DNA from: an uncultured Clostridia bacterium | GTDB lineage: Bacteria; Bacillota; Clostridia; Christensenellales; UBA1242 | Length of the DNA stretch: 64,000 nt | Assembly (NCBI GenBank): GCA_948442695.1 | Contig: CAOJSF010000002.1 | Span: 132,254 to 196,253 of the forward strand | Reading direction: 5' to 3' | Shown: in pieces, positions 12,612 to 49,467 of the stretch | Layout: each line of letters starts with the position of its first letter | How positions within the stretch are numbered: position 1 is the stretch's first letter | Made by a program: the position numbers and the translations under genes | Notes under the pieces: generated by a model | Databases searched by the model: none | Told to the model about the DNA's origin: nothing | Seen by the model: the letters and a program-made list of their open reading frames with translations, nothing else

Positions 12612-12764
12612 TTTTTTTAATTAATTTAATCAATCATTATTATTTTTTAATGACTTTATTTATCTATTTTATCTTTATTTTTTATTGATTTTTATATTTT
12701 AAAGATATTTTTTAATTAATTTTAATAATATTTTTTATTATTTTTTAATTTAATTATTAATTTT

Positions 12765-13379: not shown

Positions 13380-13456
13380 ATATATTTTAAAATCATCATA
13401 TTTTGTTTCGTCTATATCTATTTTCTTCTTTTCCTCTATTTATAAATAATTTAAAA

Positions 13457-14119: not shown

Positions 14120-14169
14120 GCTTTCTCCTGTCTAAAAATTAAAATAATCAATACCATTTGTTTTCAGTT

Positions 14170-14330
14170 AAAATAAACAACTATATTTCAAATTCTTGAT
14201 CTTTAGCAATTTCATTTCTGAAATAATAATGCTGTCCGTCTTTATAAACTTTGTCTCCAAATATCTCTGCCTGTTCATCAGACATGATGATAAATCCGCC
14301 AACATACTTAAGGTTTCCTATATCTTTCAA
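14170..14330. repeat. 161-bp tract identical to 14914-15074
   Basis: Matches at 161/161 bases, checked base by base, with an offset of 744 bp. It covers the 3' ends and stop regions of two adjacent paralogs. Confidence 0.95.
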
Positions 14331-31730: not shown

Positions 31731-31967
31731 CTACTTTTTCAACTCTTCCGCCTGCTTTTTAAGACTATCAACATATTTTGATAATGTCTCGAAAGATTTT
31801 AAACTGGTTTCCATTAATTCTTGTATTTCAGGCGTAATTCCACCCTCCGCAAGTTTGATGATTTTTTCTCTCTCCTCATTTAACAAAGTCAAAAGGTCTA
31901 ATGCTTCTGTAAGTCTTGCGTTGATTTTTGTGTATTCTTCTAAAGTTTTATTATCTTGAGAACTCAT
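31731..31967 (-). CDS. Small (78 aa) predicted helical-hairpin protein, translationally coupled to the LRR gene
   Basis: ATG at 31967 lies 6 nt after GGAGGAGG, which is encoded by the EEEE codons of the upstream gene. It overlaps that gene by 17 nt. The sequence MSSQDNKTLEEYTKINARLTEALDLL...AEGGITPE...LKKQAEELKK reads as two helices with a central turn. Confidence 0.6.
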   Translation of the reverse strand: MSSQDNKTLEEYTKINARLTEALDLLTLLNEEREKIIKLAEGGITPEIQELMETSLKSFETLSKYVDSLKKQAEELKK

Positions 31968-34197
31968 CTTCTTCCTCCTCCCATAAAACATATTGTTCTT
32001 TATGCCAGTCACCGCTCCAACTTCCACTGCCTGCATATTTATAGTCATCAAAGTTTGGCGCTTTCAATATCTCACTCTTTGGATTTTCCCTTATATAATC
32101 ATTGATTGCCGTCCAGTTTGGTGAGCATCCACAAGTGACTTTTCTTATAGGCTTGGCAGAGTTCTCTATGTTATACTCTTTTACAAATGCCTCAACTCCC
32201 TCAACTGCCTTTTCATATATTGACCTTCTCTGAGAGTCGCTTTCGTCATATGATATATTGACCTCAAAATCATTGACAACTGCATAACCCTCTTCTCTAT
32301 TGACATAGATTATTCCAAAACTTACTATATTCCCATTAAAATCTTTTATTGCAAGCGGTTGTATATCTGGATGTATTATCATTGCCCTCATTGCTCCCGC
32401 TCCCGCTCCATATAGTCTTGCACAACAACTTGTGTAACATCCGATTGCAAAGTTGACTGGGTCACTTTTGTCAAGGACTTCATAGGTGAAGATGTGTGAT
32501 GTGTCTTCTTTCTCTTGTGCCAAAATTTCTTTTGATGTGTCAAGTATGTGGTTGCTTAAGGATTGTGTCTTTTCTCGATATTCATCCAAACTCGCAATTC
32601 GCCCCTGAGAAACCTTTGTTTTCAGCACATTTTCTATGCCTTTGGCCTCTCTTTCTTCATCAATCTCTTTGGCTTTATCAAAATGTTTCTGTTCATAGAT
32701 ATTGTGTTTATCTATCTCCTGTGCAATTTCATGATCTCTTGCTGTCGTCAAGCCTGAAAACTTTTTGTTTGCAAATTCTTTCTTAAAAAGTTCTACTGTT
32801 GGTCTAAGCCACTTTATCTTGTCAACACCATTCTGCATTGTTTTGTAGACGAGTAGTCTATATCTATTCTCTTCAGTATGTGGCAACTCGTCATTTGATA
32901 ATTCTTCTTGCAGGTCTATTTTCTCTCGCTCGAGATACCACTCATATATTCTAGGCAACAATTCTGGCTCCTGACAAACATCATTCCAGTTGGTTTTATT
33001 TAAACAAAATTTTAAAAATTCTTCATTAAATCCTTGAAATTGCAATCCTTGAAAATTTCTATGCATTGACTTAAAATCTAATTCACCTCTGTTTTGAAGC
33101 CCTTGCAAGAATGTGTAAGCCACATCTTTAACTGTAATTTCTTTACCACTTAATTTTATGGTTTTGTCTTTGTCCTCAAATGCACCTAAAACAGAACACA
33201 AATTGCAATAGTCGTAGAGGTTTATTGCCATATCTACCGAATTATTTGATTCAATGAGTTTGATTATTTTGTTTATCTGCTTTTGCGTAATATTTTCAAA
33301 GATTTTTTTAATTCTTCCTTGACTGACCATGCTTCTCAATACTTCACAATGCAAATCCAAACTTTTTCCATTGCAAATAATTGTATTGACACCATTATAC
33401 AAATTTCTTCCTATTGATAATATTGAATCAGGAATTATAATATTTGTTAAACTTTCACAATTATAAAATGCATATTCACCTATTACTTTCACTGAATTTG
33501 GAATCGTAATATTTTTTAAATTTGTGCAGCCATCAAATGCCTGTATTCCTATTTCCGTTACTGAGTCTGGAATTGTTATGTTTATTAAATTTTTACAATC
33601 ACCAAATGCATATTCACCTATTACTTTCACTGAATTCGGAATTGTTATGTTTGTTAAATTTGTGCATCTCCAGAATACACCTTTTTTTATTTCCGTTACT
33701 GAATCAGGAATTATAATATTTGTTAAACTTTCACACTTATAAAATGCATCTTCACCTATTACTTTCACTGAATTCGGAATTGTAATTTTTGTTAAATTTT
33801 CACACTTATAAAATGCACCGTCACCTATTACTTTCACTGAATTTGGAATCGTAATATTTTTTAAATTTGTGCAGCCATCAAATGCCTGTATTCCTATTTC
33901 CGTTACTGAGTCTGGAATTGTTATGTTTGTTAAACTTTCACAATTATAAAATGCATATTCACCTATTACTTTCACTGAATTTGGAATCGTAATATTTTTT
34001 AAATTTGTGCAGCCATCGAATACACCTTTTTTTATTTCCGTTACTGAGTCTGGAATTGTTATGTTTGTTAAATTTTCACAATTATGAAATGCACGGTCAC
34101 CTATTGCTGTGATTCCATCCCATATTTTTTTATTCTTGTTTATTTCAGCAACATCAGAATCATTCACACTGACAAGAATGCCATTTTCAACTTTCAT
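31951..34197 (-). CDS. BspA-type leucine-rich-repeat protein with an uncharacterised Cys-rich C-terminal domain
   Basis: 748 aa from ATG 34197, preceded by AGAGGTG. About ten 23-aa repeats (ITIPNSVKVIGEYAFYNCESLTN / ITIPDSVTEIGIQAFDGCTNLKN), which is the LRR_5/BspA type. No N-terminal hydrophobic signal. The C-terminal ~480 aa contain CYTSCCARLYGAGAGAMR and VTCGCSPNW, and I recognise no family. Confidence 0.75.
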   Translation of the reverse strand: MKVENGILVSVNDSDVAEINKNKKIWDGITAIGDRAFHNCENLTNITIPDSVTEIKKGVFDGCTNLKNITIPNSVKVIGEYAFYNCESLTNITIPDSVTEIGIQAFDGCTNLKNITIPNSVKVIGDGAFYKCENLTKITIPNSVKVIGEDAFYKCESLTNIIIPDSVTEIKKGVFWRCTNLTNITIPNSVKVIGEYAFGDCKNLINITIPDSVTEIGIQAFDGCTNLKNITIPNSVKVIGEYAFYNCESLTNIIIPDSILSIGRNLYNGVNTIICNGKSLDLHCEVLRSMVSQGRIKKIFENITQKQINKIIKLIESNNSVDMAINLYDYCNLCSVLGAFEDKDKTIKLSGKEITVKDVAYTFLQGLQNRGELDFKSMHRNFQGLQFQGFNEEFLKFCLNKTNWNDVCQEPELLPRIYEWYLEREKIDLQEELSNDELPHTEENRYRLLVYKTMQNGVDKIKWLRPTVELFKKEFANKKFSGLTTARDHEIAQEIDKHNIYEQKHFDKAKEIDEEREAKGIENVLKTKVSQGRIASLDEYREKTQSLSNHILDTSKEILAQEKEDTSHIFTYEVLDKSDPVNFAIGCYTSCCARLYGAGAGAMRAMIIHPDIQPLAIKDFNGNIVSFGIIYVNREEGYAVVNDFEVNISYDESDSQRRSIYEKAVEGVEAFVKEYNIENSAKPIRKVTCGCSPNWTAINDYIRENPKSEILKAPNFDDYKYAGSGSWSGDWHKEQYVLWEEEEDEFSR
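33476..34019. repeat. Near-identical 69-bp-periodic DNA repeats inside the LRR gene
   Basis: 33476-33583 is identical to 33821-33928 (108 bp, offset 345 = 5 x 69). A third long match starts near 33939-33959 (offset 483 = 7 x 69). Confidence 0.85.
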
Positions 34198-34394
34198 AAT
34201 TTCACACCTCTGCAAAAATCGTGAGCATAATCTTTATATTTTTATTATATCAAAAATATCAAAATTGTCAAGTCTAAACATATGATATTAAAACACTTAC
34301 AACATTCTTATTATTCTTTTACACTTAAAATATCTCATATTCCTTTTATCATAGTATTTCTAAAAAATGTCTTATTTTCACTATTTTTGTGAAC

Positions 34395-34428
34395 AAAAAA
34401 AAAAAAAACGCTAGGTCTCCCCAGCGTC
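34395..34428 (-). terminator. Strong rho-independent terminator after the giant gene
   Basis: On the minus strand: ACGCTGGG-gaga-CCTAGCGT, an 8-bp stem with one G-U pair, followed by T14. Confidence 0.8.
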
Positions 34429-34437
34429 TTTTTCAAA

Positions 34438-37400
34438 TTAAGTCATATTGATCCATTTAAAATTGTCTTCAATATACAAAGTTGACAACGAATTGAAACT
34501 TGTTTTCCATACCTCATTTAAATATATATTCATATTATCAAAATCTACTTTGGCTATAAAAATACCATCTTTGATTCTTTCATATCCAAATGTAACAATT
34601 TGCCTATCACCCTCGCCTTCAACATTGACAACATTTCTATAACTTTCTCCATCACTGCCCTTATATAAAATAATTTGTTGCAGATTTTCGGTGATTGTCA
34701 TAGACCATTTGTCACGATAATCTTTTTTCTTCTCTTCTTCTGAAGCATCTTCATCAGGTTCTGCTTTTTGATAATAAACATATTGTTCAGTTTCATTATT
34801 GTTTCTGACAATTTTTATATTGCCATTTGTAAACCAGTCTTTTGAAGTATTATAATAAAGTTCTGTTCCAACCATCAACTCATTTGTTGGAAGAGGATTA
34901 GGTTCGCTATCCAACAAGTTCCATGTGTTACCATCATCACCACTTACCTCTCTACCTTTATAATCAAAATCATCCTTGATTTGATATATATTTCCATAAA
35001 GATTTCTAAGTCTATCTGCAGAAACTCCAGATACTTCTTGTGATAGTTTGTTTACATATTCCATAGCAGAAACGCCATAATTATTTAAAGTAAAATTCAT
35101 TAAGTTGTTTTTTGCCCTGCTATAAAATTTTGCATATTCATTGTTTGCTTTGTAAACTTGATAATTTTCCAACTTCCATATTTCATCATTCATTTCTTCA
35201 GGATTTGTAAATTTAGGGTTATCGCTTTCTGTAAATGATTTATTTCCACTACCATCTTTTACCTTGCCTGCACCCAAATAATATACATTATTGTAAGAAT
35301 CGTTGTTTACAACTTTATGAACATATTCAAACAACCCATTATTTGAAGAATTTATTTCAATTTCATCAAATTCTTTGTTTGTACCCAGTGCTTTAATGTC
35401 ATAAACTCTTGCATCTATAATAGAGGTTGTATAGCAATAAGAAAGAACAGGCTCTTTTGTAGAATAACCTATCAATCCACCGGCTTGAGCGGCCGAACCT
35501 ATACCCATAGTATGAGTATCAATATAAAGATTTGAAATACAATAACTATTTTTCATTTCAAGAGAAGAGTAAAGTTCGTCTCGAACGTAACCTACAACTC
35601 CGCCTAGTTTTGGTTTTTCTTGTCTACCTTTAACAGTGAGTTTGTCTGACTTTACTGCAACGCCATCAATAACGAGTGCTGAATTTACCGTTCCAACAGC
35701 GCCACCGACATTGACTGTACCAGTAATATCGGCATTTATAACACTATCTTCAAGCATAGATATTCTTCCATCTGAAGCATGGACGTAACCTATCAAACCA
35801 CCTACGTTTTCAACTATTGTCTGATTTTGTTCATTATAAAGTTCAAAACTTTGTTCATTTAAGACATTTGAGATTTTTCCGCCACAGAATTTACCAGCAA
35901 TTCCGCCGACAGCCATAGGCACTTTTGGAGAACCTACAAATGAAAATTCAGTAGAACCATTATTTGAAACATATGCATGATTTAAATTACCAGAATTTTC
36001 ACCAACAATATAACCAGCATAGAAATTTGATCTTATTTTCATTCCTTTTGTAACATCTGCAAAAGCATAATCTACATTTGCACCATTTCCTATTCCACCA
36101 AAGAGGATACCTGCTTTGCTTCCTGTGACAGATGTTATTTTCTTGACATGAGCATTTTGAACTTTACCTTTGCCTACAAATCCTATCAGGCCACCAGCAT
36201 AAGAATGTCTATTTTCCTGTGAAACATTTTCTATATATTGTTCGTCAACAACAGGAGTATAAACAGACCAAATGTCAGCATCGCTATAAATATCTTTTGC
36301 TTCAAAAGCCGTGTCTGCCTTTCCTATAATTCCACCAACAAAGTTTAGTCCTGAAACAGCAGACAAGTTGTTGCTGTAAGCATCCACAGTAATATCATAG
36401 ATATAACCATGTCTAAGCGTTCCAGCAAGAGTTCCAACATTGTTTGTATTGTTGAAAATCACCTCTTTTGGAGATATTTTAAGATTTTTTACTGAACCTG
36501 TCTTACTTGCTGAATAACCTATCTGAGAGAATAGACCACCATTTGTGCGAGTATTCATATAAACAAGTCCTATGCTTGAAATTTCCATTCCATTGCCTTC
36601 AAAATTTCCAGCATAAATTACTTTATAAAGATTTGAATGACCTTTAAAATCAACATAATTTACATTGCTTATCATTCTGTAATCTGTTGTATTAATATTG
36701 TTTGAAGCGGTTTGATTGAGAATTTCATTTTCCATTGACTGAGCATCATAAATCAATCTAGGATTATGCAATGAGCCCCTCTCTGGAGCGGACATATCAT
36801 CAGTATAGAAATATGTGATTTCATCTGTTGCTTCATCAATTTCAGAACGATCAAAGTTTCTAAGTGAAAGCACTCTAGTATTTGGCGCAACAAGAGAAAG
36901 TCTATTTTTACCAAACATCATAAGTTCTCTGTTGTAAACAGTATTACTTTGATTATTTCCTTCATCACCAGGTAGAACAATTTTTTCTGTTGTTGGAATA
37001 TAATCAACAAAGTATTCTGATTGATAACCTTGCGAGAAGAACCAAACAGATCTTGCACTTACATTTTCATCATAAGAATAACTGTTAAAATATTTTTCAA
37101 TATCAGCAAACTGCCCCTGAGTCAATCTTTGAACGCCTTCAATTGTCACATCATAAAGTGAAACATTGATGTCAATATTGTTTTCTCCAGTGACATAATG
37201 CCCTTCTTTTCTCAGTTGTTCAATTCTATCCTGATCATTGCTAGGCGCCTGCAAGTTGTAAAGATAATAACAATTTTCAAATTGACCATTGCCACCATCA
37301 AAACTATTTTCCTTTACAAAGCCTGCTGAAGCAGTTGTATTATTTCTTAAAATTGACAATGAGAAGGAATTTCTTATAGTTCCACCATTTCTATAAACAA

Positions 37401-40400
37401 AGCCAGCCATATCAGAAGAAGTTTTCGAAAGGTTTATATCAGTATAACAATCTTTAATTGTCCCCGCATTATTATAAACAAAACCTGCACCAGCAAGAGT
37501 AGACGATATTTCACTTTGACTATCTTTACTGAATAGATTTGTGTTTATTTGTTTTCCTGAAACATAACTTGTGATAATTTGAGCATCCTTAGAATTTGTT
37601 ATCGCAAGACCGCCTATATGTTGATCATACTGAGAGTTATTGATGAGAATACCTTTTTCAAAATAGCATCCTGCAATCTTGCCATTATTTTGAGCAACAA
37701 GACCAGCCAAATTGAAAGGCACTTTTGCATTTATGCTTACTCCACTATTTGTGATGTAACCACTGTTATAACCACATAGACCACCAACATAACTATTATT
37801 AGTAATTGCATTGTCGGCTTTTACAGCCAAATAATATTTGTCTTCAGACAATACATCTGAATAAACTCGGCAGTTTGTGATTATTCCCATATTTTGGGCA
37901 ACAATGCTTCCAAAAACAAAGTTTTCTGCTGTTGTGATAAATTTGACAGTCTTTAGACCATACCAACCATAAACAGAATCATTTATGTCTGTATTAAGGT
38001 CAGAACCATTATTTAAGGTTGTGTAATTTACAATAAGGTTTTTAATAATAGAGCCAGCATTTAAAGTATGGAACAAACCGATATCAGTCAATGCACCCAT
38101 ATCATAAATTCCAGCAAAATTAATTGCATGGCCATTTCCATCAAATGATGCAAAATCTCCATTTAAAGGAGTAAATGCACTCGCACCACTCTCTTCTGAT
38201 GTTGAAGGAAGAGTTATGTCATTAAGCAAGATATAATAGCCACCACTTTGCATATTTGTAAGATCTGAATAAGTGTAAATAGGAATAGGACTTTCTTCAC
38301 TGCTTGAAGAATAAACACTGAAAACAAAGGTTGTCTCAATCTTTCTTGCAGTATCTTCAGCACCTTCATCTTTTACTACATAAACACCATTTTCAGAGTC
38401 GAAATATGCACAATAGTCTATATAATAGAACTTTTCAACAGGTTGATGAGTCCTCTTTGGAATCAAACTCAATCCGTCTGATGTGAAATAATAATTATCA
38501 TGTTGTCTATTTTCAACTGAATTGTATCCCAACAAATATCTCTTTCTATCTTCGTTTGTTGGGTCTGCCATTTTATAATCAGGTTGATCATCTGAAATAA
38601 GGTTTGTTATGGTCTCCCATCTTCCCTCTTTTTCAAGAGAAGATATAAATTCTTCAATCTTGTTTTTCACACCACTTATTGAAGGATTATATTCAATGTA
38701 GTCATAAATGTCTAAGCCTAATGTGCTTTTTGTCCCCACTTGAACATTTATTACACCATTACTCATTCCCTTTACAATATCAGAATTTTTATCAAAATTG
38801 TTATTATAATTTAAAACATATTCAAAAACAACAATCTTAGTTTTACTTTCTGCTGTTCTGACAGTTTCGCCATCTTTTTGTGTGGCTTTTGTAGTCAAAA
38901 TAATTTCATTTTTGTTGCCATTAAAATCAATAGCACTTTCGGAAATATTTAAATAATAATTTCCATTTTCAAATGTGACTTTACCTATAGAATTATCCGA
39001 AGTTATGCTTATGCTATCCTGTCTAAATCCATAAGAATTTATATTAAGTTTATATTTTAAGCCACGAGCCACTTCATATGTATGATAAATTCCATTTTGA
39101 TTTGTTGAAACAGGTTCTTTTCCGTCAACCTCAACTGCTACATAATTTTGTAGTTTTACTGTCAATTCTTTACTTGACGAATAATAAGAATTTCCATCCT
39201 TCCAAACAGAAACATTTATTTTTGACTTACTTAAATCGCTTACACCTGAAGAACTGAGGTTGTATTTGATATAAATTACACCATCATAATTTTTATAGCC
39301 TTTCCTAGCATAGATAGCGATAAGGTCATTTAATGTTATTTTAAAACCATTTCCAACGATTGAACCTGCGATAATATTGTCATCAAACATAGGATTATTT
39401 TTGTTTAATTCACTATCTGTAGACAAGTCATTTCTTGCAAGCAAACTAAATAAAGCAATTGCCCTATTATTTGCAAGGTTTTGTTCGTCATTTTCAATTA
39501 AAATATAATCAAAGTCACTATCAGATGGTTTCACCGTCAAGACAAGAAGTCCAGCCTCGCCTGGATAAGCCAAATCAGATGTGCTTGTCAGACCATCTTG
39601 ATTGTCATTCAAATTTGTATAATTGTCAATAACAATAGACTGAACACCAGTTTTTTCAAAATTTATTTCAATATTTCTTGAAACAGTTGAATTGCTTGAA
39701 GACTCTAAATGAAGCAAATAACTACCATATATATCTTTAATATATCTTTCTTGATATAACTCACAATTTGTATTTATTATAATTTCCAAACTAAATATAT
39801 GTTTGAAAGTTCCATTTGTTGAAGAATTAGATGTAGGCTGAGTAGAAATTTTATTAAATTTAAGGATAAACAAAAATTCTGCTTTATTTGAAATTTCATA
39901 ATTGATTTTATCATTAATGATATCACCCTGCAAAGGTTTATCGTTAAGACCCAACATATAATATTTTGGCAAATCTTCTTTTTCATCTGTTGAAATTATC
40001 GTAATTTCATCATAAATTTTCCCACTTGTGACAATAGAAACACCGTTATAATTCTTGTTGTTTAAACTTATTGCCCCAAATTTATAATCTACAACCGCTT
40101 CTTCAAGGGTCTTGTTTGTTGAAGTAGTATAAATATTTCCATCAATAACCTGTTTTAAAATAGGCTTAATTTGAAGTCTATAATCACCTTCCAAAGAATT
40201 ATCTTTTCTTCTGATAGTGATAATCTGACCTACAACACTTATGTCAAGTGGGTTTTCACTTTCATCGTAGAATTTTTGATTTTGTTCATAATTTTCAGAA
40301 TCAGATTTTGTTTTATATAAAACACTACTTGTATTTCTATCATCAAACACTCTTACACTTGCAGTAAGGTCTGTATTTTGTGCCAAATAGAAACTTACAT

Positions 40401-43400
40401 TTCCATAACTTGCAAAGCCTCTAGAATCAGATATAAAATTATATTTATCAATTGCAATTTCAGCCTGATAATCTGGAATCACATAAAGCATTGCAGAATT
40501 ATTGCCACGAAGTGTAATTGTAGATTGATTAATAGGGTCAGATGATGTTGGCGTTGGATAAATCACCGAAATTTTATTATTATCATCTTCAAGTGCTTGA
40601 GAATTGAAATAATTCACCACATAGATATAGAAATTCAAAGACTCGTTTGAATTTAAAATGCTTGACGCTGTCACCAAAGCAAGACCAGTGCCCTTGATTG
40701 TGACTTTCCCCATTTGGTCAAAAGTCAAGATGTCAGGACTCTTTGAAATGAATGTCATCTCACCTTTTGCGACAATAGGATAAAATTCACTTAAAGATGT
40801 GTGCCTATTTAAATCTAAATCAATATCATTTTGCAGTTCTGCAATATCGCCGTCAATCACTGAGGCAATGTTGAAATAATAGGTATAGAAAACTTGAGAT
40901 TTTCCATTTTCGCTCAACAAAGCATTATTAAAATTTTCACCTATTGATAGGTCATCCGCACTGCCTTTAGCAAATTGTTTTTGATATAAAAGAATGTTTT
41001 GCTGAAGTTGATTTTGCCCAACTACTATAAATTCTCCATAATAATTTGCTCTATTTGAATCGGATACTATAAAATTATTTTCAGTTTCAGTCTTTTCCAA
41101 ATAATGTCTATTTAAATATGATAAAACATTATTTTCAGTAAGAGATGATACATTTGCTCCATTTTTAGTTCCAAAACCGAGAGCGTTGTATGATAAGCCA
41201 TTTTCAGTTTCATATTTTTTCTTATCTTCATCAGAAAATTTGCCATCATATAAAACTGCCATTGCACTTTCTTCTAATATCTTACCATCATCAACCGCTT
41301 GAATTGCATATGTTTTATTTTCATCATAGTGTTCTTCATTAGAACTAAAATCAGCGTTTAAATATGAAATTAATGAAATTTGAGAGTTGTCGCCAAAAGG
41401 TTTATAAGCACGGACAAATGTCCTTGTGGTAATTCCTGTGAAATCATGTAAATTATCATTTTCATTTATTCCAGCAACACCACCAGTAAAGCCATGTCCC
41501 CAAACTTCACCACCAACAATCAATCCTTTGCCTGCTTTAAATTCATTTTTGCTATTATTAGTATAAAAGCCAAATTTGCCATCTTCATCTTTATAGCCAC
41601 CCAAAACTTTTGCTTCTGCAGTATTTTTCCCAACAAGACCACCTACGAAGATTTGATAATCTGTTCGAGAATCTGGTTTTTCTATGAAAGATGTCTTTAT
41701 TTTTGAGTAGACCATATAGTTTGCATAACCATTAAATTGAGTTGTGCCGTCTATTTTTTGTATTGTTCCATTATTAACACCGGCTATACCACCAAAATTT
41801 TTCTCAAAAACAAATGTTGAATTTTCATGTATAGTATATTTAATATCAACAACATCGTTCATCATAACAACTTTAGGGGTTGCATTTTTCTCTAATGCCG
41901 TAAAATCTTGAACTATTGTCCCTTTGTTTTCTCCGACAAGTCCTCCAAATAATACATTGACATCACTTGTTATCATGATTTTTGAAGCAAATATAGAAGC
42001 ACCGACATTTGTAAGCGTTCCTTCATTTATACCTGCGACCAAACCGATATAAGATGCTTTATCACTAATTATTTGAAAACTTCCACTGAACTGAACATTT
42101 TTTATGTATGCACCAGAAGAAATTTTGGTAAAGAGACCAAAATAATATTGTCCATCAACATCAATATGACTTCCTATGCCACTAATTTCGGCATATTCAC
42201 CTTCACCGATTATCGAACCAGTAAGTTCTCCCAACGATTTTGTTATACTTGATGCGTCAATGGCAGTTTTTATTTTGAAGTGTGCTGAAAGATTATCTTT
42301 AAGCATTGCTAAATCATCAGAACTTTCAATGGTATATCTGCTGTTTTCTGTCCCCTTAGCAAAAGAGAAGTCAATGGATACATATTCGTTATATCCAGGT
42401 CTTAAATCACCATTTGAATCAAGCCAGTCTTTAGCGACAATCTTGATTTTTCCAGTAATTACTTCACTATCATAATTTTCTTCTTTTTCAACAACTTTTT
42501 TCAAAAAGTCTTCATCAACCTTAAAAGTGATATGTGTTTTGCCATCACTTTCAATAAAGGTTATTGAATTTTTATTGAGGACTTTAAAAATCTGACCGCC
42601 TCTTGTAATCTGACCGCCTTCAACAAGAACTGCAAGTTCACTGCTTGTTGCAGTCGAATTTGTTGGATATGCAATTACACTTCTCTCTTGTTTAAATGCT
42701 GAAAATTCAAGTTCTTTCAAAGTCTCAAGAAGTGTTACTCTTTGCACCTCTTCATACTTATGAATTTTTATATTAATAGTCTCTGAATAAAGTTTGTTGT
42801 ATTGCATCACATGAGCGATAAGTTTTACCTCTCCACTGCCCATAGCAGTAAAGATCATTCTTTCAGCATCAAATGTGCCGACATTTCCGATTGTGTAAAT
42901 ATTGTTTTGATATGGTGAATAGAAAATTCTATCCACATTCTTTCCATCTTTAAAAATTGCTGTATCACTTTCAAAATACACAAATTGTTGCATAAATCTT
43001 TCTGCAACAAAAGTCCTTGTTGCCTCACTGTGACTTTGGCTTTGGAAAAGAAATGCATTTGGATTTTTTAATACAACTTCAAACTTAGCCTGTTTGATAT
43101 CATTGTTGTTTGTGCCAGCATAAACATTTACATAACTTGCCCTTGTTCTTGCCTCATAATTTGGATTGAAAGCATCAGACAATTTGTAAACAAACAAATC
43201 TTGCGCAAGTTCATAAGTGACAAGGTCTACAATATATTCAATATATATTTCATCCTTAACAAAGTTGTCAATTTTATATCCTCGAACCTTAAATGTGAGT
43301 TGGTTTTGCCCACTTAAAGTTGAGTAAATAAAATATCTTCCATCTTCTTGCAATCTCGTCAAAACTGAAGAAGAGTCATTTATAATATCAATATCTATTA

Positions 43401-45546
43401 TCGCAGTTGAATTTACATCGCCATTTGCAATAAGTTTTGCATCAAAATAAACTTGAGAATTGCGATATAAAAGATAGATAAGTGAATTATTTTCGGTATC
43501 ATTTTTGAGTTTAACGGAATTGTCTTCATTTAAAGTTTCTAAAGTTAATGATTTAAGTCCCTCTCTCACTTCAACAGTAAGCAGTGTGCTTATGCCATTA
43601 TCTAAAGTGATTAAATAAGTCCCAGAGCCAACATCACGAGGAAGAAGATTTAAATTTAAGAAATACTTTTCACCCTCTCTTCTGAAAATGTTTGACTCAT
43701 CATAAGCAAATCTTACAACATCCTTTCCAGATTCAAGAGAGAAAGTCAAGCCATTAAATTCTGCATCAGCAAAAATGTCATCAAACAACACCTCCCCAGC
43801 ATATCGCTCGAGTGAAACAACTTCTTTAAATTTCTCGGTATTGAAATCTAAATTACGAACGCCTTTTAAAATTTCGTATTGAATATTAGTTTCAAGGCTG
43901 TCTGGTTGAATTATATTAAAATCCATTTGCACAGGCAAATTCTGAATTTCTGTTGTCAGTTCGGCATTTTCACCGCCTCTAACAAAAACAGGCTCTTTTA
44001 TATCATCAATTTCAACTACCTGTTTTGAATAAATGATATTTTTATATTTTATTTGAAGGTCTGCCCCTGTAAGGTCAAGTTTCAACACATCAAATTCTGC
44101 CCCTTCTGGCACAACTGAGAAATTGAATGCCTGCCAGCCAGAATTTTCTGAAGCATAACTATCATAGAATTTGTAAACTTTGTTCATTTGAGCAAAATCG
44201 ATATTATTTATAAGCAGTGTGACTGGAATAATACGAATGTCTACTGGAAGACTATAAGTAAAATTGACATTTTCGTCCTCACTGTTTTCAAATCCATCAT
44301 ACCAAAAATTGAAATCAACAACTGTTTTTCTTGCATTACCTATACTACAATTCACCTCAAAATAGTAAATGGTTTTATCGTCATACTTTAAAACATTTAA
44401 AAGTTTTGTGTTTACAAAGTCTTTATCTCGAGTATTAAAATCAAAGTTTAATAAGTCATTACTAGGAATTTCAAGTTGCAAATATGCAGTCAAGTAATTG
44501 GCAGTTTTGCCTATTAAGAATGGATTATCCAAAATTGTTGTTGTATATTGAGGAATAAGTGTTATGTTTCCATCTTTAAGTGAATCAATTTTATATAAAG
44601 TATTTTCATTTCCTGAAACAAAATTTACGCCCTCGATTTTATAACCATATTCATGTGAAAAATCTTGAGATGTGATATCTTTCAAAACTTGAAAATCCCT
44701 TTCACAGAAAATATTGCCATTGCCTTCACTTTCTTCAGTTTGACTGTTGAAATATTTTGCCATAAAAGTGAATTTATCACCAAAACTTACTGTAGTTGCT
44801 TTTGCAATATCAAATGAAAAACCTTCTTCATTTTTAGTCACTTCAATGAAATTGTATCTTGTATTATTTGTGCCTAAGACCAAAGTCTCCTCACCCAAAG
44901 TATACAAAAGCCCATCTTTATCTTTAAAGATGAGATAATCATTATTTTCAATTGTTTGCATTTGCACACTTACAAAATTGTTGATATAACCATTGTTTGA
45001 ATTTATATCTTCTTCAGTCAGCGTGCCAAAAGATGTTGTCTTTCCATAGAAATAGAAATCAAGTTCACGTTCTGTTGCACTATCATTAAATTTAAAATCG
45101 GCAGAAGAAGGTGAAAGAATCTTTGATTTTGAAACAAAAAGTCCATTCTCCCCTCTTTCCAAAATACTTGAATATTCCTTGACATTAATAGTCAATGAAA
45201 AAGTTTTTCTTCCTTCTATTGTGGCAAAATCCACAATAGTTCTTCCACCTGCAAGTCCTTTTATGGAATATGTAGTTGTGTTGTTTTGGTTTGCTATTTG
45301 TTCTACTTTTACAGCCAAAGGATTTGACTGGGAAAAAGTGATTCCCCTATTCATTTTATCAACAGGATTTTTAATCGAAATTGAAAGTTCTTCTTCATCT
45401 CCAACAAAGAGTTCTATATAGTCTCCGAGCGATGAAGAAAGATAAGTCTTTGAATAATCCAACTTGCCACAGGACACAAAAATAATGCTTGCTAAGACAA
45501 GTAGTAAACTGAATATAAAAATACTAAGTTTTCTTGATTTTATCAT
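34438..45546 (-). CDS. Giant (3702 aa) surface lipoprotein with Ig-like domain and two GLUG-motif beta-helix repeat blocks
   Basis: Signal peptide plus lipobox (LLLVLASIIFVS-C). Big_2-like segment near the N-terminus (GDEEELSISIKN...YSIKGLAGGRTIVDFAT). Many repeats of GG(L/I)(V/A)G.N.G.I type (VGGLVGENKGTI, FGGIAGVNNGTI, VGGLCGYNSGYI, AGGLIGFVGKGKV, VGGIAGKFCGGKI and others), clustered at about 41450-42130 and 35560-37930. Confidence 0.85.
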   Translation of the reverse strand: MIKSRKLSIFIFSLLLVLASIIFVSCGKLDYSKTYLSSSLGDYIELFVGDEEELSISIKNPVDKMNRGITFSQSNPLAVKVEQIANQNNTTTYSIKGLAGGRTIVDFATIEGRKTFSLTINVKEYSSILERGENGLFVSKSKILSPSSADFKFNDSATERELDFYFYGKTTSFGTLTEEDINSNNGYINNFVSVQMQTIENNDYLIFKDKDGLLYTLGEETLVLGTNNTRYNFIEVTKNEEGFSFDIAKATTVSFGDKFTFMAKYFNSQTEESEGNGNIFCERDFQVLKDITSQDFSHEYGYKIEGVNFVSGNENTLYKIDSLKDGNITLIPQYTTTILDNPFLIGKTANYLTAYLQLEIPSNDLLNFDFNTRDKDFVNTKLLNVLKYDDKTIYYFEVNCSIGNARKTVVDFNFWYDGFENSEDENVNFTYSLPVDIRIIPVTLLINNIDFAQMNKVYKFYDSYASENSGWQAFNFSVVPEGAEFDVLKLDLTGADLQIKYKNIIYSKQVVEIDDIKEPVFVRGGENAELTTEIQNLPVQMDFNIIQPDSLETNIQYEILKGVRNLDFNTEKFKEVVSLERYAGEVLFDDIFADAEFNGLTFSLESGKDVVRFAYDESNIFRREGEKYFLNLNLLPRDVGSGTYLITLDNGISTLLTVEVREGLKSLTLETLNEDNSVKLKNDTENNSLIYLLYRNSQVYFDAKLIANGDVNSTAIIDIDIINDSSSVLTRLQEDGRYFIYSTLSGQNQLTFKVRGYKIDNFVKDEIYIEYIVDLVTYELAQDLFVYKLSDAFNPNYEARTRASYVNVYAGTNNNDIKQAKFEVVLKNPNAFLFQSQSHSEATRTFVAERFMQQFVYFESDTAIFKDGKNVDRIFYSPYQNNIYTIGNVGTFDAERMIFTAMGSGEVKLIAHVMQYNKLYSETINIKIHKYEEVQRVTLLETLKELEFSAFKQERSVIAYPTNSTATSSELAVLVEGGQITRGGQIFKVLNKNSITFIESDGKTHITFKVDEDFLKKVVEKEENYDSEVITGKIKIVAKDWLDSNGDLRPGYNEYVSIDFSFAKGTENSRYTIESSDDLAMLKDNLSAHFKIKTAIDASSITKSLGELTGSIIGEGEYAEISGIGSHIDVDGQYYFGLFTKISSGAYIKNVQFSGSFQIISDKASYIGLVAGINEGTLTNVGASIFASKIMITSDVNVLFGGLVGENKGTIVQDFTALEKNATPKVVMMNDVVDIKYTIHENSTFVFEKNFGGIAGVNNGTIQKIDGTTQFNGYANYMVYSKIKTSFIEKPDSRTDYQIFVGGLVGKNTAEAKVLGGYKDEDGKFGFYTNNSKNEFKAGKGLIVGGEVWGHGFTGGVAGINENDNLHDFTGITTRTFVRAYKPFGDNSQISLISYLNADFSSNEEHYDENKTYAIQAVDDGKILEESAMAVLYDGKFSDEDKKKYETENGLSYNALGFGTKNGANVSSLTENNVLSYLNRHYLEKTETENNFIVSDSNRANYYGEFIVVGQNQLQQNILLYQKQFAKGSADDLSIGENFNNALLSENGKSQVFYTYYFNIASVIDGDIAELQNDIDLDLNRHTSLSEFYPIVAKGEMTFISKSPDILTFDQMGKVTIKGTGLALVTASSILNSNESLNFYIYVVNYFNSQALEDDNNKISVIYPTPTSSDPINQSTITLRGNNSAMLYVIPDYQAEIAIDKYNFISDSRGFASYGNVSFYLAQNTDLTASVRVFDDRNTSSVLYKTKSDSENYEQNQKFYDESENPLDISVVGQIITIRRKDNSLEGDYRLQIKPILKQVIDGNIYTTSTNKTLEEAVVDYKFGAISLNNKNYNGVSIVTSGKIYDEITIISTDEKEDLPKYYMLGLNDKPLQGDIINDKINYEISNKAEFLFILKFNKISTQPTSNSSTNGTFKHIFSLEIIINTNCELYQERYIKDIYGSYLLHLESSSNSTVSRNIEINFEKTGVQSIVIDNYTNLNDNQDGLTSTSDLAYPGEAGLLVLTVKPSDSDFDYILIENDEQNLANNRAIALFSLLARNDLSTDSELNKNNPMFDDNIIAGSIVGNGFKITLNDLIAIYARKGYKNYDGVIYIKYNLSSSGVSDLSKSKINVSVWKDGNSYYSSSKELTVKLQNYVAVEVDGKEPVSTNQNGIYHTYEVARGLKYKLNINSYGFRQDSISITSDNSIGKVTFENGNYYLNISESAIDFNGNKNEIILTTKATQKDGETVRTAESKTKIVVFEYVLNYNNNFDKNSDIVKGMSNGVINVQVGTKSTLGLDIYDYIEYNPSISGVKNKIEEFISSLEKEGRWETITNLISDDQPDYKMADPTNEDRKRYLLGYNSVENRQHDNYYFTSDGLSLIPKRTHQPVEKFYYIDYCAYFDSENGVYVVKDEGAEDTARKIETTFVFSVYSSSSEESPIPIYTYSDLTNMQSGGYYILLNDITLPSTSEESGASAFTPLNGDFASFDGNGHAINFAGIYDMGALTDIGLFHTLNAGSIIKNLIVNYTTLNNGSDLNTDINDSVYGWYGLKTVKFITTAENFVFGSIVAQNMGIITNCRVYSDVLSEDKYYLAVKADNAITNNSYVGGLCGYNSGYITNSGVSINAKVPFNLAGLVAQNNGKIAGCYFEKGILINNSQYDQHIGGLAITNSKDAQIITSYVSGKQINTNLFSKDSQSEISSTLAGAGFVYNNAGTIKDCYTDINLSKTSSDMAGFVYRNGGTIRNSFSLSILRNNTTASAGFVKENSFDGGNGQFENCYYLYNLQAPSNDQDRIEQLRKEGHYVTGENNIDINVSLYDVTIEGVQRLTQGQFADIEKYFNSYSYDENVSARSVWFFSQGYQSEYFVDYIPTTEKIVLPGDEGNNQSNTVYNRELMMFGKNRLSLVAPNTRVLSLRNFDRSEIDEATDEITYFYTDDMSAPERGSLHNPRLIYDAQSMENEILNQTASNNINTTDYRMISNVNYVDFKGHSNLYKVIYAGNFEGNGMEISSIGLVYMNTRTNGGLFSQIGYSASKTGSVKNLKISPKEVIFNNTNNVGTLAGTLRHGYIYDITVDAYSNNLSAVSGLNFVGGIIGKADTAFEAKDIYSDADIWSVYTPVVDEQYIENVSQENRHSYAGGLIGFVGKGKVQNAHVKKITSVTGSKAGILFGGIGNGANVDYAFADVTKGMKIRSNFYAGYIVGENSGNLNHAYVSNNGSTEFSFVGSPKVPMAVGGIAGKFCGGKISNVLNEQSFELYNEQNQTIVENVGGLIGYVHASDGRISMLEDSVINADITGTVNVGGAVGTVNSALVIDGVAVKSDKLTVKGRQEKPKLGGVVGYVRDELYSSLEMKNSYCISNLYIDTHTMGIGSAAQAGGLIGYSTKEPVLSYCYTTSIIDARVYDIKALGTNKEFDEIEINSSNNGLFEYVHKVVNNDSYNNVYYLGAGKVKDGSGNKSFTESDNPKFTNPEEMNDEIWKLENYQVYKANNEYAKFYSRAKNNLMNFTLNNYGVSAMEYVNKLSQEVSGVSADRLRNLYGNIYQIKDDFDYKGREVSGDDGNTWNLLDSEPNPLPTNELMVGTELYYNTSKDWFTNGNIKIVRNNNETEQYVYYQKAEPDEDASEEEKKKDYRDKWSMTITENLQQIILYKGSDGESYRNVVNVEGEGDRQIVTFGYERIKDGIFIAKVDFDNMNIYLNEVWKTSFNSLSTLYIEDNFKWINMT

Positions 45547-45648
45547 TTACATATCCTTTAATTTCAATTTTTTTATTAAAAATCAATGTTTTTTTGTGAT
45601 TTTTTTGATTTTTTAATTAAATTATCATTTTTTTGATAATTTTTTATA

Positions 45649-45687
45649 GCAGTCAAAATATAGTATCTTTCAACCTATTTTGACTGC
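45649..45687 (-). other. Perfect 12-bp-stem hairpin between the VirB4-like and giant genes, no U-tract
   Basis: GCAGTCAAAATA (45649-45660) pairs with TATTTTGACTGC (45676-45687) around a 15-nt loop. It begins 6 nt after the ATPase stop codon. Confidence 0.6.
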
Positions 45688-45692
45688 AAAAA

Positions 45693-48380
45693 TTATTTTT
45701 TCTTTCTCTTTTCTATGATTGAATAAACATAAGGAAGAGGTCTGATTTGAACCATTGTTCTCGCTGTTGGAGAGGTTATAATAAATGCCTGACCAACCGA
45801 CGCACTTACAATGCTGTTTCTCTCTGCTTTATTAATACCACCAGAGTTTTTATAAAGTTCTATAAGGTCGTTTACGTCATTTGGTGAAAGTGAGAATATA
45901 AGCGAATATTGACAGGCGTTGATGACCGCAGTCGATTGACGCTTGATTTCTTCAGAGCCAACAAAGTCGTTAATATTCTGAGTAATTACAATCTGCATTC
46001 CGCCATACTTACGAATACGCTTAGCCATACTTGTCATGAAGTTCAGCGCAATAGGATATTTAGGGTTGATGAACAAGTGGGCTTCGTCAACGACAACAAT
46101 AATCTTTCGATTTGTTGCGTGCAATTCGTTGTAGTCCTTGTTGTTGATAACTTCACTTTCTATATACTTAAATACCAAAAGCATTTGTGCGTTTGTAAGC
46201 ATTTCATTACTTCCCGCAATAAGAGACTGGAAGTTGAAGCAGACAAAGTTTTCATTTGTTTCAATAGATGTTGGTCCATTCCAAATATTTGAGTTTCTTC
46301 CGCCAGTAGCAAACTTTCTGATATACGCCTGAGCAACTCTCAAGTTGTTGAGCACAAACTCTTCTTTTGCTTCACCGAGTTTTTTATTGATAATTTCATA
46401 AAGGTCATCAAAAGTAGGATAATCTGTTGGTTTAAGTTTTTTAAGATCGGTGTATTCATTAATGTTAAACTTATCATACACTTCAAGAATCAATGTGTTG
46501 ATCATTTCAAAAGCGTCTGAAGAAATACCCTGCAAAATTGTTCTGAAGAATTGTTCAAGGAATTGAAGGTGCTGATTGAACGAGTCATCTTTCTTCACTT
46601 TTGCCTTTTCAGCATTTGGATCTTCTTCGTCCATCATCATATCTTCATCGTCATCTTTATCAAGTGCTCTGATAATATTGAACGGATTGATGATACCCTG
46701 CAATGAAGAGCCGACATCAATCATTTTACCATGCAGACTTTCACAAAGTTCAGCATATTCCTTTTCAGGGTCAACGATGAATATCTTTGTATTGTCGGCA
46801 GCAAAGTTTGCTAGAAGTGTCTTTGTCGCAAATGACTTACCTGAACCAGACTTTCCGATAATCATCATATTTGAGTTTACACGCTGAGGATTTCTTGCAA
46901 AGAAATCTACGAAAACTGGATAAACATTGTCACCGATATAGAAACCACCTTCATCTTGAAGTTCTGATGAGATGAATGGGAATGTTCCAGCAAGCGTGTA
47001 AGTTGGGATTCCCCTTTGAAGTTCTTTTATATTATCACGCATAGAAATTCCTGTGCTGATAAATGCGTCTATTTGTCGAGCAAACAATTCAGTGAAACGG
47101 AATCCTTCCTGTTTAAGCATTGATTTGATTTCCTTTCTTGCTGAATCTTCACAGGTAATATAAGTGTTGACATCAAACAATTGCTGGTTTGAAGTTTTAA
47201 GTTCTTGAAGAAGATTTCTCAATGTTTCAAGGTGTGTTTCAATTTCAATTCGAGTACTGCTTTTTCCAGTTCTATATAATTTTGTTTCCATATCCATTAT
47301 GGCTTTATCAATTTTCTTTTCAGATTCAAACTTTGGTGCTTTTTGGAATTTCATAACAACTTTTGTTCTATCCAGAAGGAAGAATGAAGCACCCCAGGCA
47401 TTTCCAACCTGCAATGGATATTCGCTTAAAGCAAAAGTCCTATATCCCACGCCATCAACTTTATATTTCGCTGATGAAAATTTTATTGTATCTGGTGTTG
47501 CCCATTTTACATAATCAGAATATGGTATATTTTCAAGTTCTCGCTCATTAAATTCACGATTATAGTTTGCTTTCAAGAAAATTGCTAGGTCTGAACCTGT
47601 CAATCTCTTTGATGCAACTGGAGTAAGACAAGATGAGAGATTGTTTGCCATACCACTTAAAGTATTGTCGAGTGCATCCAAATCCTTGCCCATAACTACC
47701 AGATAGAAGAAATCTTTGTAAATCTTTTCATCTCGATTTTTGTTTTCGATGTAATTTACTCTTTCTTCAAAGATAGGCGATCTTGCATCAATTTCTTTTT
47801 GAGACATCTGCTTTTCATAAAGTTGGTCTAAAAGTCTATCATATTTTTTATTTTCAAGATATGCATAATTATCAAGCACCATTGCTTTATTTAATTTGAC
47901 AAGTTCGCATACCTGATTTTCTTCAATTCTTCTAAGTGCGTTTCCAAAACCAACATCAATGACATTGTTTTGACTATACTCATTCAAAAGCCCAAACAAA
48001 ATAGGACTTACTTCCAAAACACCTGCATAATAACTTCCATAAGAGATGAATCTATCTTCATAAATTGACTCAAAAGGAATGATGTCTTTCATGTTTGCCT
48101 TGCCATTTTTAGGTGCTTTTTCATATTTCTTCTTTTGCAGAGAATATCTTGCAAGATGGGTCATCGTCACATAAAATCTGTCACTATCTGCAATCTTAAA
48201 AAAGAGCGAAAGAGCAAATATAGCCCAAACCATCGCAATCCAAATATGACCAGGAAAGTTTGAAGCAGCAAGAACAATTAAAATTGCCACAGCAATCACC
48301 GCAATCAAAAGATCAATACCAGTAAATCCCCTGACAAATTCCAGTTTAACTTTAGTTCTTCTAGGAATAACTCTTACCAT
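45693..48380 (-). CDS. virB4: VirB4-family type IV secretion ATPase with fused N-terminal VirB3/PrgI-like two-TM module
   Basis: 895 aa with RBS GTGAGGT. Two N-terminal TM helices (GIDLLIAVIAVAILIVLAA, IWIAMVWAIFALSLFF). Walker A GKSGSGKS, VDPEKEY (the DPxxEY motif), Walker B VVVDEAHLF, and RIRKYGGMQIVITQN. Confidence 0.85.
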   Translation of the reverse strand: MVRVIPRRTKVKLEFVRGFTGIDLLIAVIAVAILIVLAASNFPGHIWIAMVWAIFALSLFFKIADSDRFYVTMTHLARYSLQKKKYEKAPKNGKANMKDIIPFESIYEDRFISYGSYYAGVLEVSPILFGLLNEYSQNNVIDVGFGNALRRIEENQVCELVKLNKAMVLDNYAYLENKKYDRLLDQLYEKQMSQKEIDARSPIFEERVNYIENKNRDEKIYKDFFYLVVMGKDLDALDNTLSGMANNLSSCLTPVASKRLTGSDLAIFLKANYNREFNERELENIPYSDYVKWATPDTIKFSSAKYKVDGVGYRTFALSEYPLQVGNAWGASFFLLDRTKVVMKFQKAPKFESEKKIDKAIMDMETKLYRTGKSSTRIEIETHLETLRNLLQELKTSNQQLFDVNTYITCEDSARKEIKSMLKQEGFRFTELFARQIDAFISTGISMRDNIKELQRGIPTYTLAGTFPFISSELQDEGGFYIGDNVYPVFVDFFARNPQRVNSNMMIIGKSGSGKSFATKTLLANFAADNTKIFIVDPEKEYAELCESLHGKMIDVGSSLQGIINPFNIIRALDKDDDEDMMMDEEDPNAEKAKVKKDDSFNQHLQFLEQFFRTILQGISSDAFEMINTLILEVYDKFNINEYTDLKKLKPTDYPTFDDLYEIINKKLGEAKEEFVLNNLRVAQAYIRKFATGGRNSNIWNGPTSIETNENFVCFNFQSLIAGSNEMLTNAQMLLVFKYIESEVINNKDYNELHATNRKIIVVVDEAHLFINPKYPIALNFMTSMAKRIRKYGGMQIVITQNINDFVGSEEIKRQSTAVINACQYSLIFSLSPNDVNDLIELYKNSGGINKAERNSIVSASVGQAFIITSPTARTMVQIRPLPYVYSIIEKRKKK

Positions 48381-48765: not shown

Positions 48766-49467
48766 CTATTTACTATAGTATGATAACAAATTAAGTTTGT
48801 TATGGGATTTTGCTTTGTTAATGATTTTTTGATTGATTACATCATTCTTTTTGGCAATAAGTTCGTTATTAAAACCTAAAATTTCATTTATAACAATCTT
48901 ACCTATAAGAAGGTTTGAATTTACGAAAATTCTGGTTGGACTTTCAGGTTTAATCGATTCATTATTTATCGTGGAAGCAATAGTCACTTTAGGCAAATTT
49001 GAAGCCTGAAATGTGTCCACCTTTTCTTTAAAAGTTTTTTCTTTTTCCTTTTTATATATGCCATAAATTATAAAATTATCGCCCGATTTTCTCACAAAGC
49101 GTTGAGGAAACTCGCAAAAAGAAGTGATAATCTTTTTGACTACCTTCCCGCTAAGTTCAACATCACAAACTCTCCCCAAACAATTGCCATTGCTGTCATA
49201 AACAGTCTTGCCAACTGGATTGTTTGAATTACTTGAAATATTATATTCAAGACAGTCTGCAGATTTTATCATTATGGTGTCATCACCCATAGAATGAATG
49301 TCCTCCCTTTTAAGGACAAAAGAATTTTCACTTTCATCATCTATGATGATGAGTCCTGTGAAAAATTTTACTCGCTCGTCAAAAATCACATTGACGACAT
49401 ATCCCACCTGATTTGCAGTCTCAAGTGAAATTACTTTTTTTGAAATTATATTGCTTATCTTTTCCAT
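48766..49467 (-). CDS. PRC-barrel domain protein (YlmC/YmxH-like, two barrels)
   Basis: VISLETANQVGYVVNVIFDE...KFFTGLII and VYDSNGNCLGRVCDVELSGKVVKKI fit the PRC-barrel pattern. Confidence 0.55.
   Translation of the reverse strand: MEKISNIISKKVISLETANQVGYVVNVIFDERVKFFTGLIIIDDESENSFVLKREDIHSMGDDTIMIKSADCLEYNISSNSNNPVGKTVYDSNGNCLGRVCDVELSGKVVKKIITSFCEFPQRFVRKSGDNFIIYGIYKKEKEKTFKEKVDTFQASNLPKVTIASTINNESIKPESPTRIFVNSNLLIGKIVINEILGFNNELIAKKNDVINQKIINKAKSHNKLNLLSYYSK

Follow-up and report, generated by a model that had tools for sequence, protein, structure and literature searches.

A 1.3-Mb genome that keeps an 11-kb gene invests heavily in it, and dozens of species have kept this one intact, which raises the question of what it is for. 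It lies at 34438..45546 on the minus strand of the window, by which we mean the whole stretch of 64,000 nucleotides analysed here (contig CAOJSF010000002.1 of assembly GCA_948442695.1, from an uncultured Clostridia bacterium), and it encodes a giant predicted lipoprotein of 3702 amino acids (aa). A first reading of the DNA, referred to below as the original prediction, had named the protein a candidate adhesin or contact-dependent effector. We consider it probable that this protein is a membrane-anchored, non-catalytic fibre for contact, with a distal tail that determines partner specificity, and it may work with the VirB4-type ATPase encoded upstream.

The gene is a single unbroken open reading frame (ORF) of 3702 codons in a window of about 31% G+C that translates well with table 11. 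No direct or tandem DNA repeats were found within it at any length able to mislead an assembler. The exact 3702-aa protein has been recorded from two contigs, and a second, independent assembly holds a version of the same length with six substitutions. The uninterrupted frame described in the original prediction was therefore confirmed, and misassembly of repeats, the event that it had named as able to overturn it, was rejected on the repeat scans, the independent assembly and the intact orthologues. The gene is genuine and under selection.

A word-indexed search identified 57 homologues that are near-full-length, 27-67% identical and nearly all 3,500-3,900 aa long, with end-to-end alignments; these are unnamed and without Pfam domains. 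A collection of one genome per species contained 47 full-length orthologous loci, all from metagenome-assembled genomes of uncultured Clostridia from human, mouse, rabbit, deer and sheep gut. The giant-protein family is restricted to Clostridia of the gut that are uncultured and have genomes of 0.7-1.4 Mb. Its hosts probably correspond to GTDB family UBA1242 (Christensenellales), with which their genome sizes, order-level labels ('Christensenella'), retained sporulation genes (SpoIIID) and gut source agree. The genome from which the window comes is 1.32 Mb, 31.3% G+C and 96.9% complete, and sampled genomes of its GTDB family range from 0.6 to 1.6 Mb. Of 151 sampled genomes of this family, 50 had a detectable central region of the giant, and outside the family essentially none did. 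This is an unnamed new family of a general kind already known, the giant beta-helix and immunoglobulin (Ig)-like surface protein.

The N-terminus carries a standard lipoprotein signal, MIKSRKLSIFIFSLLLVLASIIFVS-C26, which conforms to the lipobox pattern [LVI..][ASTVI][GAS]-C. Cys26 is nearly invariant in the family; the N-termini of orthologues end in F[VA][AS]CG, and those of the deepest branch in FVGC[GDNS]. With a lipobox present, no other hydrophobic segment in the protein and the Cys conserved in orthologues, the lipoprotein signal (IIFVS-C) of the original prediction holds. The genome encodes Lgt (PF01790, 242 bits, contig C2:117560-118306) and the signal peptidase II LspA (PF01252, 118 bits, contig C8), and we infer that Cys26 is lipidated and the protein displayed at the surface. 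No match to sortase (PF04203) was found in the 96.9% complete genome, and the protein has no [LI]PxTG (LPXTG) motif and no C-terminal hydrophobic segment, which together rule out a sortase-anchored LPXTG adhesin. The lipid anchor had earlier been linked to a wall-less or thin-walled host. This was not supported: the genome encodes two penicillin-binding protein transpeptidases, and the host therefore makes peptidoglycan; M23 and SpoIIID, the latter a retained sporulation gene, are encoded as well. The anchor is accounted for by a genome without sortase, not by the absence of a wall.

Searches of the whole protein against Pfam (E <= 0.1) and NCBIfam returned zero matches. Its layout was instead derived from family profiles and from AlphaFold2 models of two segments, aa 1036-2235 and aa 2236-3435, each built with a 48-sequence alignment of orthologous segments. 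From the N-terminus to the C-terminus, in window coordinates, the features are as follows.

45469..45546, minus strand: signal peptide and lipobox (aa 1-26, ...ASIIFVS-C26), the sole hydrophobic segment, with the conserved Cys.
45109..45444, minus strand: Big_2-like Ig domain (aa ~35-146), for which the family profile matches Big_2 arrays.
42364..45108, minus strand: family-specific N-terminal region (aa 147-1061), with no consistent matches.
41362..42363, minus strand: beta-helix module M1 of GLUG type (aa 1062-1395), with regular short strands in the AlphaFold2 model and four GG[LIV][VA]G motifs.
40777..41361, minus strand: mixed alpha/beta connector (aa 1396-1590), with several short helices (DSSP of the AlphaFold2 model) and lower predicted local distance difference test (pLDDT) values.
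38842..40776, minus strand: chain of Ig-like beta-sandwiches (aa 1591-2235), from the all-beta AlphaFold2 model and Foldseek.
38302..38841, minus strand: beta-rich domain with one long helix, before M2 (aa 2236-2415), from AlphaFold2 and DSSP.
37237..38301, minus strand: beta-helix module M2 of GLUG type (aa 2416-2770), from AlphaFold2 at pLDDT about 90-98 and Foldseek.
36787..37236, minus strand: M2-M3 insert of 150 aa, short helices then a long-stranded beta sheet (aa 2771-2920), from DSSP.
35395..36786, minus strand: beta-helix module M3 of GLUG type (aa 2921-3384), from AlphaFold2, with six GG[LIV][VA]G motifs.
34522..35394, minus strand: hypervariable C-terminal tail (aa 3385-3675), from the spread of identity and length.
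34441..34521, minus strand: conserved extreme C-terminal motif (aa 3676-3702, EVWKTSFNSLSTLYIEDNFKWINMT), from a motif scan.

For the N-terminal part, a profile of the first 1,009 aa of the family was scored against 1.84 billion representatives. At E < 1e-30 it matched 103 clusters (50% identity), most of them 3,300-3,900 aa long and the remainder fragments, and most matches began at residue 27-32, right after the lipobox Cys. Positions ~9-120 of the profile also matched between 6 and 31 tandem stretches in unrelated proteins, which Pfam labels as Big_2 arrays. Big_2 itself (PF02368) had no match in the 3702-aa protein and matched one of the 47 orthologues at E 0.0099. The N-terminal Ig-like domain of the original prediction receives its support indirectly, through these tandem arrays. 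Beyond this domain, aa 147-1061 had no match among PDB sequences, and the whole-family profile found nothing in the PDB at E <= 1. Pfam searches with the 47 N-terminal segments gave only scattered weak matches, the commonest family appearing in 3 of the 47, and the best 150 hits among the 1.84 billion representatives included no out-of-family match past the first domain. The invariant residues of this region are only Gly, aromatic or hydrophobic.

The model of aa 1036-2235 (m9c37c1106c79) is almost all-beta, with a mean pLDDT of 83.9 and a predicted template modelling score (pTM) of 0.60. Its Foldseek matches in the PDB were strings of Ig-like domains: NUP210, KIT, protocadherins, PrgB (8beg), the S-layer protein SbsC and complement MG (macroglobulin) domains. 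Alignment of the N-terminal and central regions with each other and with themselves by hhalign revealed no significant internal repeats, and the Ig-like domains are therefore too diverged to be counted by sequence. The original prediction had left more than 1500 aa without a recognised motif; most of aa 1396-2415 can now be assigned to an Ig-like chain on the AlphaFold2 and Foldseek results, and aa 147-1061 and the tail stay unassigned.

The model of aa 2236-3435 (m360b6513f3e5) reached a mean pLDDT of 89.4 and a pTM of 0.87. This pTM suggests that the segment forms one rigid body, in which the M2-M3 insert would pack rigidly with M2 and M3. The best Foldseek matches in the PDB were an IgA1 protease (6xjb, E 2e-4) and BACOVA_03286 (3n6z, E 1.5e-3), each at probability 1.0. 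Beta-helix matches of IgA1 proteases from S. pneumoniae and G. haemolysans, together with BACOVA_03286, had probabilities of 0.9-1.0, and below them stood generic right-handed beta-helices at low probability. GG[LIV][VA]G-type motifs occur 12 times in the protein, at aa 1201-1355, 2588-2614 and 3071-3356, against 0.6 +/- 0.8 in shuffled sequences. Both the Foldseek matches and this enrichment identify the GLUG-type domain as a right-handed beta-helix, and the Pfam Glug family (PF07581) did not reach its threshold in the protein, with a distant homologue scoring 19.8 bits against a cut-off of 20.5. The three modules are mutually homologous (hhalign probability 98, 97 and 94%; M1 to M2 98%, M1 to M3 97%) and open with the same cap, which reads '...I.s.eDL..m...L.ahy.l...Id.s...lG.l.G.i.G.g' in M1, 'YYILLNDI...FDGNGH' in M2 and 'YRMISNVNY...FEGNGM' in M3. 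The two GLUG-type clusters described originally are thus real blocks, and their number had to be corrected to three modules, since hhalign and AlphaFold2 divide aa 2540-3330 into two. M2 is the most conserved part of the protein, with a median identity to orthologues of 52.5%, and D2256 and E2285 are invariant in the domain that precedes it.

The protein is evenly conserved over its first ~3400 residues, after which conservation collapses. Across the 47 orthologues the median identity of aa 3385-3702 is 11.6%, compared with 36-52% for every other region, and the length of the tail varies from 109 to 424 aa. The same part of the protein changes between strains: in one species, 92 of its 155 variable columns lie in the last ~10%, and in a second the figure is 34 of 138; within-species length differences also fall there. 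Because the N-terminus is the anchor, the tail is the distal end, and we infer that it is a fast-evolving tip that binds a partner or ligand. The last ~25 residues are conserved (EVW.TS...LSTL.FE..L.W) despite the hypervariable ~300 aa ahead of them. Among 46 full-length orthologues, L.[FILVA]E..[LFI].W was found in the last 25 residues of 31 by a strict count and of 34 by a relaxed one, and the motif was absent from the deepest branch. The motif might be a structural strand folding back to dock against the helix, or serve as a signal for sorting or recognition.

These results are consistent with the following mechanism. After Sec export, Lgt and LspA would lipidate Cys26 and so fix the N-terminus in the membrane. 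The remainder would form a long, almost all-beta, non-catalytic fibre, for which the folds of aa 1036-3435 are taken from AlphaFold2 and Foldseek and the extended shape is presumed. Along this fibre the order would be the Big_2-like domain, ~900 family-specific aa and then the three beta-helix modules, with Ig-like domains between M1 and M2. A beta-helix rises about 0.48 nm per rung, and an Ig-like domain spans about 4 nm; if extended, the fibre would measure several tens of nanometres and should be long enough to cross the wall. The C-terminal ~300 aa, farthest from the anchor, would act as the partner- or ligand-binding tip. The fibre might further belong to a domesticated apparatus, similar to type IV secretion and used for cell-to-cell contact, as its arm for contact or adhesion; we return to this below. 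Of the two roles put forward in the original prediction, an adhesin-like one is the best reading of the data.

The main rival, to which we give a small but real chance, is a structural envelope or surface-coat protein, either S-layer-like or a wall-spanning scaffold, which would bind no specific partner and have no tie to VirB4. Length and sequence are evenly conserved over aa 1-3400, as would suit a coat. Total length is near-constant within species (3707-3714, 3809-3820 and 3835 aa), and there is therefore no variation in repeat number between strains; the strain comparison suggested in the original prediction was carried out and found none. SbsC, an S-layer protein, is among the Foldseek matches, the genome encodes several other giant surface proteins (6445, 4925, 3560 and 3208 aa), and synteny with VirB4 may be mere inheritance. 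However, a hypervariable distal tail with strain-level turnover fits recognition, or evasion of immunity or phage, better than it fits a scaffold. About two thirds of the family's genomes, moreover, lack the protein or have no detectable copy, and it is hence not a universal envelope component.

We think it unlikely, and give it little credence, that the protein is a surface-anchored enzyme with catalytic beta-helix modules, such as a glycan depolymerase or lyase (as in phage tailspikes, or like polysaccharide lyase family 6, PL6) or a relative of the M26 proteases. The idea draws on the Foldseek results for aa 2236-3435, which list IgA1 proteases, PL6 alginate lyases, Lam55A glucanases and tailspikes, and on the search against viral models, which returned similar uncharacterised GLUG-like helices including a siphovirus 'putative IgA1 protease'. 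However, the IgA1-protease match is confined to the non-catalytic beta-helix, and the lyase, hydrolase and tailspike matches are of low probability (0.03-0.3). HExxH occurs nowhere in the protein and none of its 31 His residues is invariant, in agreement with the lack of a catalytic signature noted in the original prediction. Invariant columns are overwhelmingly Gly, Asn, aromatic or hydrophobic, as expected of beta-helix ladders and sandwich cores. The invariant acidic residues are few; D2469 and E2983 are found in the [DE]GNG turn with which both M2 and M3 begin, so that they look structural and do not mark a module-specific cleft. No enzyme family of Pfam or NCBIfam was matched. An M26 IgA1-specific metalloprotease was ruled out, as there is no HExxH, no invariant His and no Pfam or NCBIfam peptidase match.

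A polymorphic toxin or contact-dependent-inhibition effector, in which a conserved filament carries a variable C-terminal toxin domain, is very unlikely. Such proteins classically have the layout seen here, a large conserved beta-helical body followed by 109-424 hypervariable aa at the C-terminus. Against this, conservation returns at the extreme C-terminus, past the variable part, no known toxin domain was found in Pfam or NCBIfam, and the N-terminal lipid anchor would keep the protein on the producer cell. The sequence downstream of the gene also speaks against a toxin, beginning with one feature next to the stop codon.

34401..34434, minus strand: intrinsic terminator directly after the stop codon, a 15-pair stem then a T run.

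No small immunity-type gene follows the giant gene here or in five related loci. In related loci rpoB begins about 320-410 bp past the stop of the giant, and here the terminator is followed by a separately promoted gene. Given this terminator, the lack of an immunity-type gene and the conserved extreme C-terminus, the contact-dependent effector of the original prediction was not supported in the toxin sense. The separately promoted gene lies between the giant gene and rpoB (window 31951-34215, minus strand), encodes a 754-aa BspA-type leucine-rich repeat (LRR) protein (LRR_5, 288 bits) and has its own 12/12 consensus promoter at 34271-34244. It is absent at the corresponding position in the five related loci, where rpoB comes directly after the giant gene, and it is therefore an insertion in this lineage.

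An artefact, whether a misassembled repeat region or a decaying pseudogene, is so unlikely that it can be set aside, as the gene is free of DNA repeats and the same in an independent assembly, intact orthologues of similar length are found in 47 loci and many strains, and an 11-kb open frame cannot persist by chance at 31% GC.

The remaining features of the locus lie upstream of the giant gene and are read in the same direction.

45547..45692, minus strand: spacer of 146 bp that separates the giant gene from the VirB4 gene and contains the ribosome-binding site AAAGGA; the sequence was read, and the terminator scan lists nothing in it.
45693..48380, minus strand: VirB4-type ATPase of 895 aa with N-terminal transmembrane helices, the upstream gene, identified with NCBIfam and the PDB.

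Full-length, this ATPase scored 580 bits against NF045975 of NCBIfam (VirB4_plasma, of the mycoplasma integrative and conjugative element (ICE) type), just below the cut-off of 590, and it matched PDB 4ag5 at 3.8e-45. Of the 151 sampled genomes of the host's family, 146 carry VirB4, with identities of about 38-65%. Even where the giants are only 28-45% identical to this one, the genes stay in the order PRC-like gene, VirB4, giant gene, rpoB and rpoC, and the arrangement of the spacer suggests that VirB4 and the giant gene may be co-transcribed. For a protein of its kind the giant is unusual in its predicted lipid anchor, fixed size, three modules and apparent operon with VirB4. The PRC-like gene upstream of VirB4 (window 48766-49467, minus strand) encodes a 233-aa protein with a weak PRC-barrel match and no NCBIfam match, and keeps its position in all related loci examined (212-247 aa).

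Other components of the same general type were found at a distance. A VirB6-like membrane protein resembling Mbov_0396/MMCAP2_0566 is encoded on another contig among housekeeping genes (C3:57229-59793), and a VirD4-like protein on contig C9 (C9:46899-48932). Neither of the two relaxase families tested had a match in the genome. Other genes follow VirB4 in more distant genera of the host's family, among them genes for large membrane proteins of up to 3,746 aa. Two such giants have 3746 aa (in one locus, 3576-14813, minus strand) and 2121 aa (in another, 4774-11136, plus strand). Their C-terminal part matches the Mbov_0396/MMCAP2_0566 family below the curated cut-offs, and each resembles a channel protein of the VirB6 type that carries a huge extension. 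A hidden Markov model of the giant family matched neither the other giant ORFs of the genome nor the large proteins encoded after VirB4 in distant genera. Our search of the literature for VirB4 together with a giant protein in Clostridia found nothing specific.

From gene order, it is possible, though we would put it at somewhat under an even chance, that a domesticated apparatus resembling a type IV secretion system (T4SS) uses the fibre as its contact arm. A fuller version, in which the lipoprotein is the contact arm of a domesticated, relaxase-less T4SS of mycoplasma-ICE ancestry, with which UBA1242 bacteria attach to partners and exchange material and whose tip sets the partner range, is speculative and rather doubtful.

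Several observations weigh against the contact-fibre interpretation and its tie to VirB4. The whole neighbourhood (M23, acpP, SpoIIID, hflX, VirB4, the giant gene and rpoBC) is syntenic in the clade, so the giant gene could sit next to VirB4 through shared ancestry of the gene order, with no functional coupling. VirB4 occurs throughout the family, whereas the giant is detectable in only about a third of the genomes, and other genera have other genes after VirB4. Adhesins usually vary in repeat number, and it is unusual for one to be evenly conserved and fixed in length over 3,400 aa. Finally, the models cover aa 1036-3435, and the N-terminal 900 aa or the tail may possibly hold a small enzymatic or toxin domain.

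Elsewhere in the genome there are at least six more giant ORFs, of 6445, 4925, 3560, 3208, 2874 and 2162 aa (C14:3753-23087, C3:96138-110912, C5:32138-42817, C4:56714-66337, C7:1603-10224 and C1:248307-254792, respectively), two of them with lipoboxes. These six and the 3702-aa gene make up about 6% of the 1.32-Mb genome. Only the 6445-aa ORF shares beta-helix blocks with the 3702-aa protein (BLASTP, 28% identity). Beside the VirD4-like gene, C9:30331-48932 holds about a dozen tandem paralogues of ~250-370 aa that all start with a motif like ...EFKKFMA.KLT.ETG..Y..EDI. A 1428-aa ORF at C1:44400-48683 (plus strand) starts with MAKYFLGLDIGTNSCGWAV..., which resembles the N-terminus of a Cas9 with its RuvC motif; if so, a very small genome retains a type II CRISPR nuclease.

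Bacteria of the UBA1242 type are common in human and animal guts, uncultured and short of most biosynthesis, and their reduced genomes are predicted to make them dependent on partners (PMC12306168, PMC13155120). For such bacteria the giant is a concrete candidate attachment device. It is a good candidate for holding other cells because it is lipid-anchored and non-enzymatic, has a fast-changing outer end and lies behind a conjugation-type motor gene. The protein may reveal the lifestyle of an uncultured gut lineage, and could be a handle for finding the partners of these bacteria and culturing them.

Comparison with known systems places the giant among several partial relatives. Patescibacteria have a chromosomal, relaxase-less T4SS resembling the FATA class of mating-pair formation (MPF-FATA), which according to the abstract of one study is proposed to have been co-opted for contact with other cells (PMC12102498). 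The UBA1242 genomes likewise combine a chromosomal VirB4 with a reduced genome and probable partner dependence, and a functional parallel can be suggested; if the giant is indeed a contact arm, Firmicutes would have their own counterpart to the epibiotic way of life of Patescibacteria. In contrast to that system, the phylum here is Bacillota, and the abstract (PMC12102498) mentions no giant lipoprotein beside virB4.

The mycoplasma ICE is close in its motor gene, as its VirB4 belongs to the Mbov_0397 family (NF045975) that the ATPase upstream of the giant matched full-length at 580 bits. In these elements the Mbov_0396 family adjoins VirB4, whereas here the Mbov_0396/MMCAP2_0566-like protein is encoded elsewhere in the genome. 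Mycoplasma ICEs carry an essential surface lipoprotein. A lipoprotein gene beside VirB4 is a likeness of position, and the giant is about ten times larger. Unlike the genes of the mycoplasma ICE, those of UBA1242 are chromosomal, scattered and vertically inherited family-wide, with no match to the two relaxase families.

In structure, the best matches to aa 2236-3435 are the N-terminal GLUG-type beta-helix domain of streptococcal M26 IgA1 metalloproteases (6xjb, 7uvk) and the stand-alone Bacteroides ovatus domain BACOVA_03286 (3n6z), and what they have in common with the giant is a right-handed beta-helix with GG[LIV][VA]G-type turns. Unlike the M26 proteases, the giant has no M26 catalytic domain or HExxH, is anchored by a lipid rather than by LPXTG, and carries three modules per chain. 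The Ig-repeat adhesins of Gram-positive bacteria, such as Big_2-rich proteins and PrgB of pCF10 (8beg), likewise have a long all-beta Ig-like stalk; the Big_2-rich adhesins share the Big_2-like first domain, and PrgB, from the pCF10 conjugation system, is an adhesin whose gene accompanies a Gram-positive T4SS. In contrast to these, the domains of the giant are too diverged for Pfam or internal hhalign and do not vary in repeat number. Compared with sortase-anchored adhesins, the N-terminal lipid makes the C-terminus the distal end, and the orientation of the giant is thus the reverse of theirs.

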